Below, in pieces: positions 30,582 through 50,442 of a stretch of 64,000 bases of DNA. A model generated the notes under the pieces. The model saw nothing but the letters and a program-made list of their open reading frames with translations, was not told where the DNA came from and made no database searches. How positions within the stretch are numbered: position 1 is the stretch's first letter; the number at the start of each line of letters is the position of its first letter. The translations under genes and the position numbers were made by a program. This stretch comes from a virus (taxonomy: Duplodnaviria > Caudoviricetes). The DNA is taken from the IMG/VR virus record IMGVR_UViG_3300016471_001002, positions 32,001 through 96,000 of that record; one strand, given 5' to 3'.

Positions 30582-32003
30582 ATGACTACACAAAACACTA
30601 CTCCGACATTCGGCACGTACGGCAAGTCTTTTCAAGAAAAGATCATGCAAGCATTGTTGACTGATTGGAAGTTTGCCGAACAGATGACAGAAGTATTTGA
30701 TTCAAATTACTTTGAATTGAAGTACCTTCAATTTCTATCAGATCGTTATTTTTCTTATTCAAAAAAATACAAAGTTTTTCCAACTTTACAGTTGCTTGTT
30801 ACGATCATTAGAGAAGATCTTAAGATAGGGACTGACGTCATTCTGCGAGACCAAATCATCGATTATCTCCAGAGGATGAAGAGTAATCCTGATCCTGGAG
30901 ATCTTCAGTTCGTTCGTGAAAAATCGCTTGACTTTTGTCGCAAGCAGGCGCTGAAAGCCGCATTAGAAAATGCAGTTGATCAGATGCAGGCGGACAAATA
31001 TGAATCAATTGTAGAATCAATTAAGAAAGCAGTCCAGGTCGGAACGGCTCCATCTGTAGGCCACGACTTCTTTAATGAGATGGATGCACGTTTCACTAGA
31101 CTCAAGCGTGATACAATTCCGACTGGCATCCCAGAGATTGACAAAAAGGAACTATTAAACGGTGGATCAGGAAAGGGAGAACTTCTTTGTGTCGTCGGCG
31201 GTTCTGGTTCTGGTAAATCTCACTTCCTCACGATGATTGGAGCCAATGCTCTTAGAAACGGAAAGAATGTTCTTCATTATACCTTTGAACTATCTGAAAC
31301 AGCCGTCGGTATCAGGTATGATTCAAACTTATGTGACATTGATTCAAATGAAGTGATGGACCGTAAAGACGAAGTGAAGTCATTCTATGAATCAAATAAA
31401 AACCTTGGAAGACTTTTTATTAAAGAGTACCCAACAAATACTGCATCAATCTTTACGATCAGGTCTCATGTTGAGCGACTGGATCTCAAAGGTTTCAAAC
31501 CAGACATTATTATCATTGATTATGCAGACATCATGAGATCGACAAGACAATTCGATTCTTTACGACACGAGCTTAAGCTTGTTTATGAAGAGTTGCGTGG
31601 ATTGGCAATGGAGTATGGAATTCCAATTTGGACTGCTTCACAGTCCAACAAGGAAGGTGCTAATGCAGAAGTCATTGACATGACAAACATGTCTGAAGCA
31701 TATGGTAAGGCAATGATTTGTGATTTTATCATCTCCGTATCCCGTCGCTCGCATGAAAAAGCTAATGGATGGGGAAGACTATACGTTGCAAAGAACCGCG
31801 CAGGAAGAGATGGATTGATTTTCCCAGCAAAGATTAATACTGCAAGAAGTCAATTTGAGATAGTCGGCGCAGCAGATGTTCCTGATGCGGCAATCGTTTC
31901 CGATGATGAAGCTCAAAAAAGAGCATTAAGAGCTAAATGGCAAGAATTAAAGAAAGAATTTTCGACACAAAAACCAAACAATTTGGAAGCCAACGTTATA
32001 TAA
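30582..32003 (+). CDS. dnaB: Replicative helicase (DnaB/gp41 family)
   Basis: GGSGSGKS, YTFELSE, IIIDYADIM, WTASQSN, VAKNRAG. Confidence 0.88.
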   Translation: MTTQNTTPTFGTYGKSFQEKIMQALLTDWKFAEQMTEVFDSNYFELKYLQFLSDRYFSYSKKYKVFPTLQLLVTIIREDLKIGTDVILRDQIIDYLQRMKSNPDPGDLQFVREKSLDFCRKQALKAALENAVDQMQADKYESIVESIKKAVQVGTAPSVGHDFFNEMDARFTRLKRDTIPTGIPEIDKKELLNGGSGKGELLCVVGGSGSGKSHFLTMIGANALRNGKNVLHYTFELSETAVGIRYDSNLCDIDSNEVMDRKDEVKSFYESNKNLGRLFIKEYPTNTASIFTIRSHVERLDLKGFKPDIIIIDYADIMRSTRQFDSLRHELKLVYEELRGLAMEYGIPIWTASQSNKEGANAEVIDMTNMSEAYGKAMICDFIISVSRRSHEKANGWGRLYVAKNRAGRDGLIFPAKINTARSQFEIVGAADVPDAAIVSDDEAQKRALRAKWQELKKEFSTQKPNNLEANVI

Positions 32004-44247: not shown

Positions 44248-45252
44248 ATGGCTAAAGGATTAGATGTAGGAACATCGTTCATCGTTCTTGCAGAAGAAGG
44301 AACGAAAGGAAAAGTTACATATAAAGATTTTCGAGATGCGTTTTATGTTATAAAACCAACGACCCCCATCGCTACAAAGATGATTGAAAAAGGATTAGCT
44401 GGAAAAGTTTTCGTTAAAGACGCCGATGGTTCATTCATCATACTTGGCAAAGACGCGATTGAAAAAGCAGTGGAAAGAAACGATTCAGCGAAGCGTCCCA
44501 TGTATAAAGGTGTAGTTTCTTCTAAAGAAAAAGACGCCCGCAGAATTTTAACATATATTCTCAAAGAAGTTGCTGGCTCACCACCTGAACCCGGAGAGAA
44601 GCTTGTTTTCTGCGTCCCGGCGCAACCTGTTGATCAAGAAGATGAAGACTTCGATGTAGGATATCATGAGGATGTCATTGTGAAACTCCTTTCAGAAGTA
44701 GGGTATTCAGCTAGAGCAATTAACGAAGCCGAAGCACTTTGTTACTCAGAACTAGAAAAGGATGATTATACCGGAGTCACACTATCATGGGGAGCTGGCA
44801 TGGTCAACGTTTGCGTTATGCTAAATGGCGAACCTATCGTCACATTCTCAACCACGAAGTCTGGTGATTGGGTTGATCGTATGGCAGCCGTTGCTACAGG
44901 CGAGACAGATTCAGTCGTTCAAGCAGAGAAGGAACAAGGCGATTTCACTGTCGGTCAACCAAACGATAATCAAGTTCTTGCTGCTGTTTCAACCTACTAT
45001 GATCGTCTCATCGATTATACGACTAAACAACTTGCTTCAGCCATGGACGGACACAAATCTCTTCCAAAGTTCAAGGATGCATTACCTGTAGTTGTTGCCG
45101 GTGGAACATCAAAGGCCAAGGGATTTGTCGATCTATTTGCAAAGAAGCTCGAAGAGAACGGTTTCCCTCTTCCAGTCAAGGAAGTTCGTCACGCAGCAGA
45201 TCCTCTTCATGCAGTTGCCCGTGGGTGTTTAATCGCAGCACAAATTATGTGA
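44248..45252 (+). CDS. Actin-like ATPase (MreB/ParM/FtsA superfamily)
   Basis: Phosphate-1 GLDVGTS, connect-1 NEAEA, phosphate-2 SWGAGMVN, adenosine AGGTS, connect-2 DPLHAVARG. Confidence 0.85.
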   Translation: MAKGLDVGTSFIVLAEEGTKGKVTYKDFRDAFYVIKPTTPIATKMIEKGLAGKVFVKDADGSFIILGKDAIEKAVERNDSAKRPMYKGVVSSKEKDARRILTYILKEVAGSPPEPGEKLVFCVPAQPVDQEDEDFDVGYHEDVIVKLLSEVGYSARAINEAEALCYSELEKDDYTGVTLSWGAGMVNVCVMLNGEPIVTFSTTKSGDWVDRMAAVATGETDSVVQAEKEQGDFTVGQPNDNQVLAAVSTYYDRLIDYTTKQLASAMDGHKSLPKFKDALPVVVAGGTSKAKGFVDLFAKKLEENGFPLPVKEVRHAADPLHAVARGCLIAAQIM

Positions 45253-45273
45253 CTTTCGAAGTTGATTAATCCT

Positions 45274-45300
45274 AAAAGCTCTCGGAAACGGGAGCTTTTT
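45274..45300 (+). terminator. Rho-independent terminator
   Basis: aaaagctctcg-gaaa-cgggagctttt, GNRA loop, T run. Confidence 0.85.
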
Positions 45301-45340
45301 CATTTTAGAATCTTTGCTGTGCAAAACTTACAACCTCGCA

Positions 45341-45349
45341 TGGTATAAT
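45341..45349 (+). promoter_or_regulatory. Extended -10 promoter TGgTATAAT (leaderless dnaE transcript)
   Basis: ATG 45356 lies 6 nt downstream; no SD. Confidence 0.65.
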
Positions 45350-45355
45350 CATGGT

Positions 45356-46327
45356 ATGTCAAACAGCAAGAAGGAAATGCGCGATCGGAGGCCAAATCGT
45401 TTTGTCGGCCTCCACGCGCATTCGTAATTTCCGCCCGGAATTTATTTTCCGGGCGGAATAATATCAGGATTCTCAACATTTGATGGGCTTGATTATCCAC
45501 AAGAGCACATCGATTACGTCTTAGAAAATGGCATGGATGCGTGGGCATTAACCGACCATGGCCACATGAACGGATTCTGCCATGCATATCTTCACGCTGA
45601 AAAAATGAGGAAATCAGGCAAGAACTTCAAGTTCATTCCTGGATGCGAGATGTATGTCCATCCCGATCTGAAACAGTGGCAGATCGATATCGAAAAATCG
45701 AAAGAGAAACCGGTCAAGGATGAATCTATCATCACGCCTATCACGGCTGTTGTTGATGGAAACGATGAGACGACGGATCTTGGAACTGATGAAGCTTCTC
45801 TGACGATCGAAAATGAAGATGAGACGAAGTCAGGTAAGTATAACGACCCAGTTAAACGTCGGCATCATCTGGTTGTCCTACCAAAAACTTCAGTTGGTCT
45901 GCAGAGGTTATTCCATCTGGTTTCTCGGGGTTATTTGGAGGGCTTCTACAGGTTCCCCCGAATTGATTACAGGATGCTGAAGGAGGCTGCGCAAGGTGGT
46001 CACTTGATGGTGTCAACCGCATGTTTAACTGGAGATGTAGAACTCATAACGAATAGAGGCCTAGAAAACCTGTTGTCTGTCGTTGAAAGATTCAATATGG
46101 GTGATGATGTCTTGGTTCTTTCATATGACGAAAAAACAGGGTCTAAGGAATTCAAGAAAGTTTCTTGGGCAGCAATGACTAGAAAAAACGCGAAATTATT
46201 GAGAATTAAACTGAAGGATGGAAAGAGTGTTACGCTGACACCAGACCACAAAGTCTTTACTAATCTGGGATGGATGGAAGCTCAAGATTTAAAAAAGCAT
46301 GAAGGAATTCAAATTCTTACTTTGTAA
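45356..46327 (+). CDS. dnaE: DNA polymerase III alpha, N-terminal PHP part fused to split intein N-half; interrupted by a 42-nt gap with an in-frame stop
   Basis: MSNSKKEMRDRRPNRFVGLHAHS-[TAA..]-SGFSTFDGLDYPQEH..ALTDHGHMNG..PGCEMY..HHLVVL..RIDY..VSTA/C; all in one frame. Confidence 0.88.
45425..45466 (+). other. 42-nt coding gap in dnaE, candidate translational bypass element
   Basis: TCG-TAA-T-[ttccgcccggaa-tttatt-ttccgggcggaa]-taata-TCA; removal restores HAHSGFSTFDG. Confidence 0.7.
46022..46324 (+). mobile_element. Split intein, N-terminal half (101 aa)
   Basis: Block A CLTGDVELIT, block B LTPDHKVF; ends at stop 46325-46327. Confidence 0.92.
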
Positions 46328-46336
46328 GCTTTAGGT

Positions 46337-46368
46337 CCTCCAAGACAAACATAATTATGTCTTGGAGG
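46337..46368 (+). promoter_or_regulatory. SD-sequestering hairpin with late-promoter motif in its loop
   Basis: cctccaagaca / tgtcttggagg perfect 11-bp stem containing GGAGG; ATAATTA at 46351-46357. Confidence 0.75.
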
Positions 46369-46378
46369 TTCACAAACA

Positions 46379-47359
46379 ATGGGAGCAGAAAAGTATAATA
46401 AATTTTTAGGAGAGGAAAAAAGCAGAATATTTGAAAGTTTTCTAGTTACGTGGAAAACAAAAGATCAAATACTCGAGATGTATAGAGAAGGTTATTCTCC
46501 TTCTCAACTTGCCAAGTTGTTTGAATATGAAGTTGGATTTGACGAGCTCCGTGAGCAACAATCTACTTTTCACGGTAAAAAACCAAGAAGCTTTTTAGTT
46601 TTTCCGACTATTACAACAAACATCTTTGCAAAAAGACTAACATCTATAATACCCTACTCAAAAGAGTTTCATGATATTCATCTTTCAAAACCGCAATGGT
46701 GGAAAATAAAATTTTCACACCTTGATAAAAGTGAAGATGAAGTTAAAGAACTTGCAAAAGTTCAGCTTCTAGATTGGCAAAAAAGTACATGCGAAAAAAG
46801 AAAAAAGTCAGGTGCTTATAATCCAATTTACACAATTGATTATTGGAAAGAGAAATCCGATGATCCTGAAAAATCAATTGAAAAATATAAACGAGAAATT
46901 AGTCCAAGGTGCATTGAGTTTTGGATAAAAAAAGGATATGACATAAATGAGGCAAAAAAAAGAATAGGCGATACATGTCGACCTGGTGCCATTAAGGTTT
47001 TGAAAAATCTCAATGGAAAAAATGCTTCGAAATTAGAAAAAAGAATTTATGAGCTCATAAATGATGATTCTGTTTGTCAACAGCTTTTTTTGGGCAAATA
47101 TGCATATGACATTTACAAAAAAGAAACAAAGAAGATCGTAGAAATCAATGGAACGTATTGGCACGCAGACCAAAGGGTTTATCAAGATTTGCAGCAAAAT
47201 CTCATTCATGGAACAGTTCAGCAGATTAGAGAAAAAGATGAACAAAAAATATCTTATGCAAAATCTAAGGGATGGGATGTTCTGGTCATTTGGGAACTTG
47301 ACTATTGCAAATCTCCAAATGAAGTGATAGAATCTATTAGAAGGTTTTTCAAAACATGA
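46379..47359 (+). CDS. Vsr/DUF559-like homing endonuclease between the two intein halves
   Basis: YDIY..KKIVEINGTYWHAD..KDEQK..YAKSKGWDVLVIWE; ATGA overlap with dnaE-C. Confidence 0.8.
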   Translation: MGAEKYNKFLGEEKSRIFESFLVTWKTKDQILEMYREGYSPSQLAKLFEYEVGFDELREQQSTFHGKKPRSFLVFPTITTNIFAKRLTSIIPYSKEFHDIHLSKPQWWKIKFSHLDKSEDEVKELAKVQLLDWQKSTCEKRKKSGAYNPIYTIDYWKEKSDDPEKSIEKYKREISPRCIEFWIKKGYDINEAKKRIGDTCRPGAIKVLKNLNGKNASKLEKRIYELINDDSVCQQLFLGKYAYDIYKKETKKIVEINGTYWHADQRVYQDLQQNLIHGTVQQIREKDEQKISYAKSKGWDVLVIWELDYCKSPNEVIESIRRFFKT

Positions 47360-47472
47360 GTAATTTTGTAGAAGTTGTTGAGGTCGAAGAACTTGATTAC
47401 GTCGAAGACGTCTATGATATTACCGTAGAAGATAATCATAACTTCTTTGCAAATGGGATGTTGGTTCACAAT
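47356..47472 (+). mobile_element. Split intein, C-terminal half (39 aa)
   Basis: Block F VYDITVEDNHNF, block G LVHN followed by extein Cys+1 at 47473. Confidence 0.92.
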
Positions 47473-50442
47473 TGTCTCGGTGGCACGTTGAGTTATGACG
47501 TCTTTTCCAAATTGCAAAAGATCAAGTTTGATGATCTGAAGCATCAGTTGCTCGATGATGCTGCGCTATTTGAATCTGTCTTGCTCGAGATGGGCAACAC
47601 TTATGATAAGCTTGCAGATGCGGTAGGTCGCGAAAACGTTGCTTTGGAGTTGCAGTTCAATAAACTTCCAGCGCAACATCTTGTCAACCGCGCGCTGATC
47701 GAATTTGCGAAACGAAACTCTTTGTCGAATCGGCTAGTCGTCACCTGCGATTCGCATTATTCTCGTCCTGATAACTGGAAAGAACGTGAGATCTACAAGA
47801 AGCTCGGATGGCTCAACTATCAGAACTTCGATCCTAATATGCTTCCAAAGTCTAAGGATGATCTCAAATGTGAACTGTACCCGAAGAACGCAACCCAGGT
47901 CTGGGATTCATATCTGTCCACAACCGAAGGCATGGATTTCTATGATGATGACCTAATCCGCGAGGCCATCGAACGTACTCATGACATCGTTCATAATGAG
48001 TTAGGTGACATTCATCCCAATAAGGAGATGAAGCTTCCTTCATATGTGATTCCTGAAGGGTCGACGGAAGACAAGGCCCTCGTCGAAGCTTGTAAGAAAG
48101 GATTAATCTGGCGAGGTCTGGATGACAAGCCTGGGTATATCGAGCGAATCAAGTATGAGCTGAAGATTATTCGAGACAAGAAGTTTTCTCGATACTTCCT
48201 CACGATGAAGGCAATCATGGACCTTGCACGTGAACACATGCTGATTGGTCCGGGGCGCGGTTCGGCCGCAGGTTCTCTAGTTGCTTATGTCCTCGGCGTC
48301 ACGAACCTTGACCCAATTGAGTATGACCTTTCATTTGAACGGTTCCTTAATCCCTCTCGCCAGGGCGCTCCTGATATCGATTCTGATATTGGAGACCGCG
48401 ATAAGCTGATCGAACTTCTCCGTGATAATTTTGGTAATAACAATGTTATTCCAATCTCTAACTACAATACCTTTAAGCTTAAGAGCCTTGTCAAAGACAT
48501 TTCAAGATTTTATAACATTCCATTCGAAGAAGTCAATGCTGCTCTTGCTCCGGTAGAAGACGATGTCAAGAAAGAAGTCTTCAAACCTGGTGTCGACAAG
48601 AACCTTTTTGTGTTGACTTATGAAGACGCGATGAAGTATTCTAAGTCGATGCAAGACTTCGTTGCATCGCATCCTGAAGTCGCCGAACCGATTGAGATTC
48701 TTTTCAAGCAGAATCGTTCTCTTGGCCGCCATGCCGGCGGTGTTATCGTGTCTGAAGACATTGCTGAACGTATGCCTCTTATTCTCGCAAAGGGTGAACC
48801 TCAGACTCCATGGGTTGAAGGCATGCATTATAAGCATCTCGAAGAGTTCGGATGGATTAAGTTCGATCTACTCGGCCTCGAAACTTTGCGCATCATCGAA
48901 CGATGCATCTATCTAATTTTGCAAAGGCGTGAAGGAATTGCAAATCCAACGTTCCAAGACATTAAGGCTTGGTTTGATAAACACATGGATCCGAAGAATA
49001 TTGATCTAAATGATCAAAAAGTCTATGAATATGTTTATCACGAAGGAAGGTTTGCCGGCGTGTTCCAATGTACGCAACCTGGCGCACAGCGTCTATTTAC
49101 GAAAGCAAAGCCTCGTAGTATCATTGACATTGCTACTCTAACTTCAATCTATCGTCCAGGTCCTCTTGCGGCAAACGTCGACAAGATCTACATTGGCGCT
49201 AAGAACGAACCTGAAAAGATCGATTACCAACATCCTCTTATCAAGAAGGTGCTAGAACCGACTTACGGATGCATCATTTTTCAGGAGCAAACCATGAAAC
49301 TTTGCTCTGTCGTCGCAGGATTCCCTGAGGCAGAGACGGATACAATTCGCAGAAACATTATGAAACGTTCTGCTTCAAAGAAAGACGCCGCGGCAGCAGA
49401 CGCCAAGAAGGCCAAGGAAGACTTCGTTTCTGGTGCGATGAAGAATGGTGTTCCTGAAAGAGTGGCAGATGAACTCTATGAAAAGATTCTCTTCTTCTCC
49501 GGATACGGTTTTAACGCATCTCACGCAGTGTCTTATGCAATTGATTCTTACTACTGTGCATGGCTCCTCACTTACTTTGAGGAGGAATGGCTTTGTGCTT
49601 ATCTTGAATCGATGTCAGGAAATGATGAGAAGCGTGCTAAGGCTTTCTCAGAGGTCAAAGCGCTTGGATACAAGATCGTAAACATCGACGTCAACTATGC
49701 AACGAAGAGCTGGACTATCCTCGAAGGAAAAAGATTCATGCCAAGCTTCCTTTCATGTAAGGGCGTGGGGGAAGCTGCAGTTGATGAGATCATGGAAAAT
49801 CGTCCATACAAATCAATAGAGGACATGTTATGGAATGAGGACGGTACGTGGAAACATTCTAAATTCAACAAACGAGCTCTTGAAGCCCTGATCGGAATCA
49901 AGGCATTTGACTCATTGGATTGTGTTGGCGTAGATAGAACGTTTAGCAGCTATAGACAAATGTATCAAATCCTGATTGATCATAATAATGAAATCAAGAA
50001 GCATACCAAAAAGAACCCTCTCGTTGGAATGGAAGCATTTCGTAATCTCCTGATCGAATCTAAGGATGAACCTGAGTGGACTCGCGGTGAGATTGTCGAT
50101 AATAGCATTAAATACCTTGGTTCATTTAATGCAGCCATGTTAATGCCTGATGATATCCTAAAGAAGTTGGAATCCAGAGGTGTCAAATCAGTTGATGATC
50201 TTTCAGGTAGTGACATTTACTGGTTTATTGTTTCTGACGCAAAACCCAAAAAGACAAAAACAGGGAAAAACTATTTGCTTTTAACGATTACGGGTATTGG
50301 AGGTCAAAATCATAGATTGTTCTGTTGGGGGTGGGATGGTATTAGAGAAATTCCCAAGTACAGCGTTTGTCTTTCTGAAATCACAGTCGATGGATACGGT
50401 AATAAAACTTTTATGAGTAAGGTTAAAGTATTGGATTCATGA
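47356..50442 (+). CDS. dnaE: DNA polymerase III alpha, C-terminal part preceded by split intein C-half
   Basis: HN/CLGG junction; TCDSHY, GPGRGSAAGSLVAY, FERFLNPSR..PDIDSD, HAGGV, KFDLLGL, IIFQEQ, YGFNASHA, C-terminal OB fold. Confidence 0.93.
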   Translation: MSNFVEVVEVEELDYVEDVYDITVEDNHNFFANGMLVHNCLGGTLSYDVFSKLQKIKFDDLKHQLLDDAALFESVLLEMGNTYDKLADAVGRENVALELQFNKLPAQHLVNRALIEFAKRNSLSNRLVVTCDSHYSRPDNWKEREIYKKLGWLNYQNFDPNMLPKSKDDLKCELYPKNATQVWDSYLSTTEGMDFYDDDLIREAIERTHDIVHNELGDIHPNKEMKLPSYVIPEGSTEDKALVEACKKGLIWRGLDDKPGYIERIKYELKIIRDKKFSRYFLTMKAIMDLAREHMLIGPGRGSAAGSLVAYVLGVTNLDPIEYDLSFERFLNPSRQGAPDIDSDIGDRDKLIELLRDNFGNNNVIPISNYNTFKLKSLVKDISRFYNIPFEEVNAALAPVEDDVKKEVFKPGVDKNLFVLTYEDAMKYSKSMQDFVASHPEVAEPIEILFKQNRSLGRHAGGVIVSEDIAERMPLILAKGEPQTPWVEGMHYKHLEEFGWIKFDLLGLETLRIIERCIYLILQRREGIANPTFQDIKAWFDKHMDPKNIDLNDQKVYEYVYHEGRFAGVFQCTQPGAQRLFTKAKPRSIIDIATLTSIYRPGPLAANVDKIYIGAKNEPEKIDYQHPLIKKVLEPTYGCIIFQEQTMKLCSVVAGFPEAETDTIRRNIMKRSASKKDAAAADAKKAKEDFVSGAMKNGVPERVADELYEKILFFSGYGFNASHAVSYAIDSYYCAWLLTYFEEEWLCAYLESMSGNDEKRAKAFSEVKALGYKIVNIDVNYATKSWTILEGKRFMPSFLSCKGVGEAAVDEIMENRPYKSIEDMLWNEDGTWKHSKFNKRALEALIGIKAFDSLDCVGVDRTFSSYRQMYQILIDHNNEIKKHTKKNPLVGMEAFRNLLIESKDEPEWTRGEIVDNSIKYLGSFNAAMLMPDDILKKLESRGVKSVDDLSGSDIYWFIVSDAKPKKTKTGKNYLLLTITGIGGQNHRLFCWGWDGIREIPKYSVCLSEITVDGYGNKTFMSKVKVLDS

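Follow-up and report, generated by a model that had tools for sequence, protein, structure and literature searches.

We analysed a window of 64,000 nucleotides (nt) from a virus of the Caudoviricetes (positions 32,001 to 96,000 of the IMG/VR record IMGVR_UViG_3300016471_001002) and focused on the 5' end of its dnaE gene, where the first metal-binding motif of the PHP domain is broken by a short, stop-containing gap. The record comes from freshwater, and because it already reaches 211 kb at only about 65% completeness, its source is a jumbo phage. The mechanical open reading frame (ORF) of dnaE begins at ATG 45533. An earlier note on this DNA had remarked that such a gene misses the PHP metal-binding motif, which the sequence confirms: ATG 45533 is the first in-frame ATG after the gap, and a start there would drop both the HxH and the FDG metal-ligand motifs. 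The HxH motif lies upstream, in a 23-codon exon that ends at a UAA stop codon (table 1). Beyond the gap, the same frame reads GGA TTC TCA ACA TTT GAT GGG, and taking out 42 nt yields the contiguous motif HAHSGFSTFDG. The −10-like box, the start codon at 45356, the TAA at 45425, the 12-base-pair (bp) hairpin, the ggaggcc/ggcctcc stem and the GGA located 6 nt before TCA are all present where the earlier note had placed them. No start codon accompanied by a ribosome-binding site was found after the gap, either in the window or in its relatives.

The gap and its surroundings are predicted to be highly structured. The segment from take-off to landing codon (45422–45466) folds at −24.1 kcal/mol, and a 161-nt region reaches a z-score of −6.75, with 0 of 200 shuffles folding as well. 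The G-rich 3' arm of the hairpin ends in GGA (45455–45457), 6 nt before the UCA at which translation could resume. Upstream, the outer stem atgcgcg/cgcgcat extends the inner stem ggaggcc/ggcctcc to form a 5' stem-loop that ends one base before the take-off codon. The 23-residue leader encoded by the exon is basic; it is conserved, yet its place in the PHP fold constrains it as well. The 12-bp hairpin is the longest perfect stem of the 211-kb genome, in which no other GC-rich perfect stem of at least 9 bp interrupts a coding context. It occurs once there and was matched elsewhere in IMG/VR only in the contig of one relative, L002, so we rejected the idea of a repeated or mobile element. An intrinsic terminator was rejected as well, since the hairpin has no T tail and was not called as one, the real terminator lying upstream of the gene.

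That the element is real, and no product of assembly, follows from independently assembled contigs that span the gap. Logan contigs of four runs were compared over 45150–45850. An independent freshwater DNA assembly (X3) spans 45150–45679 with three substitutions and no insertions or deletions, and a lake assembly from another study (X4) spans the whole stretch. Within the element, X4 differs only by T>A at 45441, 45442, 45445 and 45446, which inverts the hairpin loop from TTTATT to AATAAA. A third contig (X19), 153 nt long and assembled from a metatranscriptome, covers 45372–45524 with zero differences and retains the gap, a weak indication that the gap stays in the RNA. The loop is thus found in both orientations on otherwise approximately 96% identical phages (the window, L002 and X4), and this flip-flop inversion (45441–45446) creates a second in-frame stop. 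The X4 lake sample also has an alternative allele in which 45255–45478 is swapped for 974 other bases.

Table 1. Features of the dnaE locus in the window.
Feature	Position	Strand	Remarks
Actin-like ATPase gene	44248–45252		Directly upstream of dnaE; Pfam Volactin, E = 7e-66
Intrinsic terminator	45274–45299		Upstream of dnaE
Extended −10-like box TGGTATAAT	45341–45349	+	6 nt before ATG 45356; read directly from sequence
dnaE 5' exon, 23 codons, MSNSKKEMRDRRPNRFVGLHAHS, PHP HxH motif	45356–45424	+	Ends in candidate take-off codon UCG, 45422–45424
5' stem-loop	45377–45421	+	Outer stem 45377–83/45415–21, inner stem 45387–93/45407–13
Untranslated coding gap, 39 nt	45425–45463	+	UAA (45425–27), one U, hairpin, AU-rich spacer UAAUA
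Take-off hairpin, perfect 12-bp stem, 6-nt loop UUUAUU	45429–45458	+	
Candidate landing codon UCA (Ser)	45464–45466	+	Decoding would resume at GGA 45467
Rest of DnaE N-extein, PHP domain, GFSTFDGLDYPQEH...MVSTA	45467–46021	+	Pfam PHP PF02811, E = 8.5e-23
Split intein, N-terminal half (CLTGDVELIT...)	46022–46327	+	Pfam Intein_splicing PF14890
Free-standing DUF559/Vsr-like endonuclease gene between the intein halves	46379–47359	+	Pfam DUF559, PHROG endonuclease families
C-terminal intein half (to HN at 47472), then DnaE C-extein (polymerase, fingers, HhH)	47356–50442	+	Pfam Intein_splicing, DNA_pol3_alpha, DNA_pol3_finger, HHH_6

Two types of gap in related dnaE genes

A blastn search with 45200–46400 against 50,697 GenBank phage records returned no match. 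Relatives were collected from metagenomes: scanning JGI metagenome contigs with the N-extein, the part of DnaE that precedes its split intein, gave 80 loci, and IMG/VR contributed 57 loci through the N-extein and 34 through an endonuclease described below. The pattern among them is the one that the earlier note had expected: the motif runs on unbroken (H.HSGFSTFDG and variants) at most homologous dnaE 5' ends, and the gapped ones keep a serine take-off codon, an adjacent stop, a hairpin and a matching serine landing codon. In two contiguous alleles, L162 and L163, an exon of the window type is joined directly to the gene, which identifies this exon as a genuine N-terminus.

Fifteen of the 80 loci, from at least 14 assemblies and representing at least eight sequence variants, are gapped at the same codon as the window (HAHS/GFS). 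The distance from take-off to landing is +42 nt in the window, L146, L147, L148 and L160, +41 nt in L143/144, L150, L151 and L156/157, +40 nt in L175/176 and +39 nt in L140/141 and L168, and all three frame relations are therefore represented (+39 to +42). The take-off codon is TCG in all hairpin variants except L151 (TCA), and TAA or TAG follows it immediately in every one. A stem of 11–12 bp starts 1–2 nt past the stop in 12 of 12 hairpin alleles, and the segment from take-off to landing has a folding energy of −20 to −25 kcal/mol. After a spacer of 5–8 nt, mostly AU-rich, comes a landing triplet that is UCA or UCG in all 12 alleles; the codons used at take-off and landing are identical in L151 (UCA/UCA) and L175 (UCG/UCG). 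GGA or GGG is found 5–6 nt before the landing triplet in 10 of 12 alleles, the exceptions being L160 (CGG) and L175 (a G-run 11 nt upstream), although this triplet belongs to the 3' arm of the hairpin and its position may simply follow from the stem.

Compensatory changes have occurred in the stem, from C-G to U-A in L140/L141 and from U-A to A-U in L160, and L175/L176 carry a non-homologous hairpin at the same place, together with their UCG/UCG codons. The 5' stem-loop is recovered as an RNAalifold consensus on 12 alleles, one of its pairs passing from G-C through G·U to A-U via synonymous changes. It was rejected as a marker of gap alleles, since the contiguous allele L162 has the same elements.

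Many of the IMG/VR loci are gapped one motif position on, at the second serine (GFS/T), and the metagenome scan added two further loci of this kind (L142 and L159). These alleles have a serine codon and one or two stops, then 2–13 nt in total, the short gaps beginning with a stop, after which the gene resumes in any of the three frames. The resume codon, set by protein alignment, is ACC, ACG, GTA or CCC in the short-gap alleles. Immediately ahead of the resume codon, in all 15 gap classes (13 short and 2 hairpin), stands a triplet that agrees with the take-off codon in two or more of its three positions. Take-off at TCC goes with the landing triplets TCC, TCT and ACC, TCG goes with TCA, TCT, ACG (in three separate classes) and TTG, TCT goes with TCT, and AGT, a take-off codon from the other serine family (L083), goes with AGT. 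As the landing triplet co-varies with the take-off codon, this second gap type supports re-pairing of the tRNA, at the level of sequence comparison. Cytosine is rare within the gaps (2.4%), yet it is invariably present in TCN-type landing triplets.

A stop codon (TAA, TAG or TGA) stands right after the take-off codon in every stop-bearing gap allele, with L084/L086 as the sole exception. These two endonuclease-bearing loci have a 1-nt insertion without a stop (ACC TTT C TCG CTT), approximately 100 nt past the endonuclease stop codon. HGHSTFSLGDG would be regained if tRNA-Phe slipped by +1, from UUU to UUC, which makes programmed +1 frameshifting a possibility at the same motif.

Both exons are under strong purifying selection. 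Between hairpin alleles of the window's lineage, non-synonymous divergence (pN) in the 5' exon is 0–0.04 against a synonymous divergence (pS) of 0.14–0.34, and downstream of the gap it is 0.05–0.09 against 0.6–0.85, which is near saturation. Pairs with the divergent L175 give a pN of 0.23–0.27 against a pS of 0.76–0.97 downstream, and the 5' exons of short-gap alleles have a pN/pS of 0.22 at a pS of 0.74. The ORFs downstream of the gaps are intact in both types. In the hairpin alleles, the 5' exon shows far less silent divergence than the 100 codons that follow it. The tree of the downstream gene intermingles hairpin, short-gap and contiguous alleles. Because the alleles are interspersed and the exon with its gap is less diverged than the rest of the gene, the data fit a (recent) exchange of the 5' module between phages, or a constraint of RNA structure on silent sites.

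With only 6 nt between the −10-like box and the ATG of dnaE, the transcript probably has no leader, or a very short one; a consensus scan found no −35/−10 pair. A box of the TGGTATAAT type, the 6-nt spacer and the ATG are kept in the relatives L140–L163, and the upstream inverted repeat TCTTTGCnGTGCAAAAC, the box and the spacing (45341–45358 in the window) are conserved in gap-bearing and contiguous alleles alike. The actin-like ATPase gene also keeps its position upstream of dnaE in many relatives.

An endonuclease cassette that ends at the gap

Pairwise blastn of gap alleles against their nearest contiguous alleles revealed an insertion of approximately 1 kb that ends exactly at the gap. The flanks of L014, which has a gap, and L009, which is contiguous, are 99.3–99.6% identical; L053 and L049 form a second such pair. 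On a tree of the first 185 residues, over which L014 and L009 are identical at the protein level, the gap state needs at least 9–10 changes. The insertion encodes a protein of 270–325 residues that ends in ...NLINWEGK and has an invariant PDF...E.K nuclease motif. This protein is PD-(D/E)XK-like, with weak similarity to Pfam Phage_endo_I and matches to PHROG endonuclease or resolvase families. The insertion also carries a 5' exon of its own for dnaE, as a replacement (M..ENPVRVP.RFVG.H.HSGFS). No old exon is left in L014, where the native one was replaced outright, and we therefore rejected the possibility that the cassette is an intron joining the old exon to the gene.

Gap and endonuclease are strongly associated. 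Near-full-length homologues of the endonuclease in IMG/VR all lie directly upstream of dnaE, and the gap is present in 25 of the 37 loci with the endonuclease versus 5 of the 47 without it (Fisher p = 6e-8). No endonuclease gene is found upstream of the window's dnaE, where the neighbours are the actin-like gene, the terminator and the promoter. In L168, however, a C-terminal remnant of the endonuclease (...YKNLLLHWEGR, then stop) immediately precedes an exon of the window type and a hairpin gap. Because of this remnant, the window allele looks like a descendant that has lost the endonuclease and kept the exon and the gap; L168 is the single locus that speaks for a cassette origin of the window's lineage.

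The DUF559 gene of the window, 0.9 kb downstream, was rejected as a partner of the gap, since it has no significant similarity to the cassette endonuclease; a tblastn match belongs to a different insertion in L002/L003. The split intein and its DUF559 gene (46022–47472) form a separate break in the same dnaE, 0.6 kb downstream of the gap. L002 and L003 are without this intein and endonuclease and have a different insertion of 1.35 kb further downstream (4440–5787 in L002), which encodes a nuclease related to the cassette endonuclease; dnaE is thus a hot spot for mobile elements. In some relatives, a DNA methyltransferase-like gene with a DPPY motif lies between the actin-like gene and the cassette (L168 509–1270; L005 1148–1909), and it is absent from the window at that position.

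Probable programmed bypassing and its alternatives

We consider it likely that full-length DnaE is made by programmed translational bypassing similar to that of T4 gene 60, because the gap appears to be untranslated while both exons are translated and selected, and because they are joined at any gap length or frame. A gene-60-like hop had been proposed in the earlier note, and the gap lengths, the in-gap stops and the conserved codons of the relatives lend it support. The ribosome would translate the 23-codon exon until UCG (45422) occupies the P site and UAA the A site. Beginning one base past the stop, the strong hairpin would fold at the A-site entrance, and termination would be slow. The peptidyl-tRNA-Ser would then release UCG and remain in the ribosome, which would slide 42 nt across the hairpin and the AU-rich spacer, possibly with help from the 5' stem-loop refolding in its wake and from the GGA located 6 nt before the landing site. 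At UCA (45464) the tRNA would re-pair, and decoding would resume at GGA. A single tRNA-Ser(UGA) can read both UCG and UCA. The product would read ...FVGLHAHS-GFSTFDG..., with an intact PHP motif, and its tryptic junction peptide would begin FVGLHAHSGFSTFDGLDYPQEH. The 211 kb examined encode 13 tRNAs, including a tRNA-Ser(GGA) outside the window (190366–190453, minus strand), which would suit relatives that hop from UCC to UCU, UCC or ACC, and not the window with its hop from UCG to UCA.

In its origin, the gap would be the right-hand end of a mobile cassette composed of a PD-(D/E)XK homing endonuclease gene, a replacement exon and the coding gap. This cassette would invade the dnaE 5' end in this phage group, the window representing a descendant that lost the endonuclease gene. 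Going by the analogy of T4 MobA/gene 60, the gap may break up a conserved DNA target and shield the allele from cleavage. The hop, its efficiency and the immunity function are what we infer from these comparisons.

Several observations weigh against this interpretation, which is argued from sequence comparison. The nominal chance values for the codon matches (<1e-12) overstate independence, as the gap classes share ancestry, although the trend itself is clear. The tRNA-Ser(GGA) of the phage does not read UCG. At take-off the nascent chain has 23 residues, shorter than the 46 of T4 and than the exit tunnel, so a nascent-peptide signal of the gene 60 type may be missing. The hairpin begins 1 nt after the stop instead of including it, and UCC triplets occur in both of its arms. 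The depth of X19 is low (3.9) and carried-over DNA is possible, while partial removal of the gap at the RNA level would be invisible in contigs. Finally, L158 and L167 have an intact endonuclease gene beside a canonical, uninterrupted motif, which weakens the immunity rationale.

Among the alternatives, a truly split gene survives best, although we regard it as improbable. The 23-residue peptide would end at UAA and the rest of DnaE would be initiated separately, and would work either without its first strand or together with the non-covalently bound peptide; in another version, the exon would be vestigial. The mechanical ORF does start at ATG 45533, the product of this dnaE already depends on a split intein to join its pieces, and phage genes split by endonuclease insertions can still function as non-covalent complexes (Topo2L with MobA, nrdA with MobE; bioRxiv 10.1101/2022.08.31.505936). 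However, the missing start codon and ribosome-binding site past the gap, in the window and in relatives, and the loss of both metal-ligand motifs from a product begun at 45533 argue against separate initiation. A split gene would also leave the matched landing codons unexplained, and purifying selection acts on the 5' exon, whose end falls in every case precisely on a serine codon.

We give somewhat less credence to removal of the gap from the mRNA by splicing or by cleavage and ligation, followed by normal translation of a contiguous message. Such an excision would bring back the frame whatever the gap length, it could use the hairpin as its recognition structure, and the contig data leave room for a spliced minority. 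The earlier note had kept this possibility open, and the RNA-library contig X19, which spans the gap unchanged, speaks against it. Furthermore, 45000–47600 contains no match to an Rfam family, intron or ribozyme at E ≤ 1, and the 2–13 nt gaps of the relatives leave no room for an RNA structure. Excision also leaves unexplained why a stop must follow the take-off codon and why take-off and landing triplets co-vary. We prefer bypassing because it would explain both, as well as the position of the hairpin towards the A site, the AU-rich 3' portion of the gap and possibly the G-rich triplet.

Readthrough of UAA or frameshifting through the gap, the former also listed in the earlier note, is very unlikely. 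The gap of the window is in frame and has a single stop, so that readthrough would add 14 residues (X-FPPGIYFPGGII-S) and give FVGLHAHS-x-FPPGIYFPGGIISGF.... This insertion would, however, fall inside the first PHP motif, and in L002 and the X4 contig, the window's closest relatives, the inverted loop adds a second in-frame stop. Every hairpin allele has a stop in the downstream frame inside its gap, two in-frame stops being present in L002/L146, L148 and L160, and sister alleles are shifted by +41 or +40 nt. As the downstream frame is closed in every gap and the frames differ, neither readthrough nor a single frameshift can make the protein across the family. A suppressor tRNA or an altered code was rejected too: no suppressor is found among the 13 tRNAs in 211 kb, each of the three stop codons occurs in gaps, and the gaps differ in frame. 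A dead allele or an assembly or sequencing artefact, which the earlier note had also named and which a metagenome-assembled contig of about 65% completeness could invite, is scarcely credible, given that independent assemblies from several studies carry the element, that the gap architecture persists with an intact gene across lineages near saturation at silent sites, and that the stem has undergone compensatory changes.

Comparison with known coding gaps

Long-range bypassing in bacteria and phages has for 35 years had the T4 gene 60 hop as its reference case. Its 50-nt bypass is reportedly linked to a cassette with the homing endonuclease MobA. Gene 60 homologues have a stop after take-off, a take-off stem-loop that is kept by compensation or swapped for a non-homologous one, wobble-compatible codon pairs, a mini-Shine–Dalgarno sequence (mini-SD) 5–6 nt before landing and an AU-rich 3' part of the gap, and in some lineages the endonuclease was lost and the bypass retained (Manning and Atkins, bioRxiv 10.1101/2022.08.31.505936). 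According to the same 2022 survey, which does not mention polymerases, every known relative of gene 60 is a homologous cassette and sits in the same topoisomerase gene.

The dnaE gap resembles gene 60 in its stop at take-off, the stable stem-loop with which it opens, its AU-rich 3' end and codons that one tRNA could read, and possibly in the G-rich triplet 5–6 nt before landing. Both gaps lie in a highly conserved metal-binding motif of an essential replication enzyme. Each bounds one side of an endonuclease cassette equipped with a replacement coding segment of its own, and the gap is kept in lineages from which the endonuclease has been lost. The two differ in the protein (the PHP domain of DnaE versus a topoisomerase), in the codons (serine UCG/UCA versus glycine GGA), in the endonuclease (PD-(D/E)XK versus MobA) and in the position of take-off (codon 23 versus 46), and they share no sequence homology. 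Moreover, the hairpin of dnaE starts after the stop whereas that of T4 includes it, and dnaE relatives have the second gap type of 2–13 nt at the adjacent serine codon. The gap of the window lies in dnaE and not in the Toprim domain of the large topoisomerase subunit, the partner endonuclease is PD-(D/E)XK-like, and the gap is an analogue of the MobA/gene 60 element and not a member of that family.

The 'Byp' elements of Magnusiomyces capitatus mitochondria are said to be GC-rich, hairpin-forming coding inserts of 27–55 nt, with matched or near-matched take-off and landing codons, tolerated mismatches and an AU-rich 3' part. The dnaE gap is likewise short and hairpin-forming, with near-matched codons and an AU-rich 3' part. 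Unlike Byps, which are multi-copy, occur in many genes of one genome and have no endonuclease partner, its hairpin is single-copy and confined to one site in one gene. A UUA-mediated bypass of 10 nt, partly supported by mass spectrometry in E. coli, was proposed for the terminase of Streptomyces phage phiHau3 (PMC10732093). This too is a short coding gap in an essential phage gene, close in size to the 2–13 nt gaps of the dnaE relatives, but its trigger is a rare sense codon and not a stop, a regulatory role has been proposed for it and no endonuclease cassette has been described. In 'fractured genes', a free-standing endonuclease gene lies between the halves of a split intein (Dassa 2009, PMC2677866), as it does in the window dnaE at 46022–47472. 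Fractured genes and the dnaE gap both make an endonuclease insertion in an essential gene harmless, the former through trans-splicing at the protein level, whereas the gap at 45425–45463 has no intein sequence on either side.

The earlier note knew of no such hop in a dnaE, and full-text literature searches likewise found no report of dnaE bypass. The window does not stand alone: gaps of two types, from 2 to 39 nt, affect this motif in dozens of phages from a large uncultured group, and the window has one of them. It is conceivable, though rather doubtful, that the replacement exon and gap form an exchangeable 'vaccination' module, traded by freshwater and marine jumbo phages, that makes the polymerase gene immune to homing endonucleases, and that hopping over 5–42 nt, with or without a hairpin, is a general and evolvable way to hide insertions in the most conserved motifs.

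For annotation, gene callers truncate such polymerase genes at an internal ATG or split them, and the PHP motif then looks absent. If bypassing does occur, dnaE would provide an independent bypass family with a different gene, codon and endonuclease. Its relatives offer a natural mutant series, comprising hairpin gaps in three frames, a swapped hairpin, identical and wobble codon pairs and graded hairpin-less gaps of 2–13 nt, that could separate the general features of gene 60 (stop, stem-loop, mini-SD and codon match) from others, such as the long nascent peptide. It is similarly conceivable, and as doubtful, that a probably leaderless mRNA with a hop at codon 23 ties the output of DnaE to the status of release factors or of tRNA-Ser, and with such a dependence the hop would be a regulatory device and not a tolerated scar.

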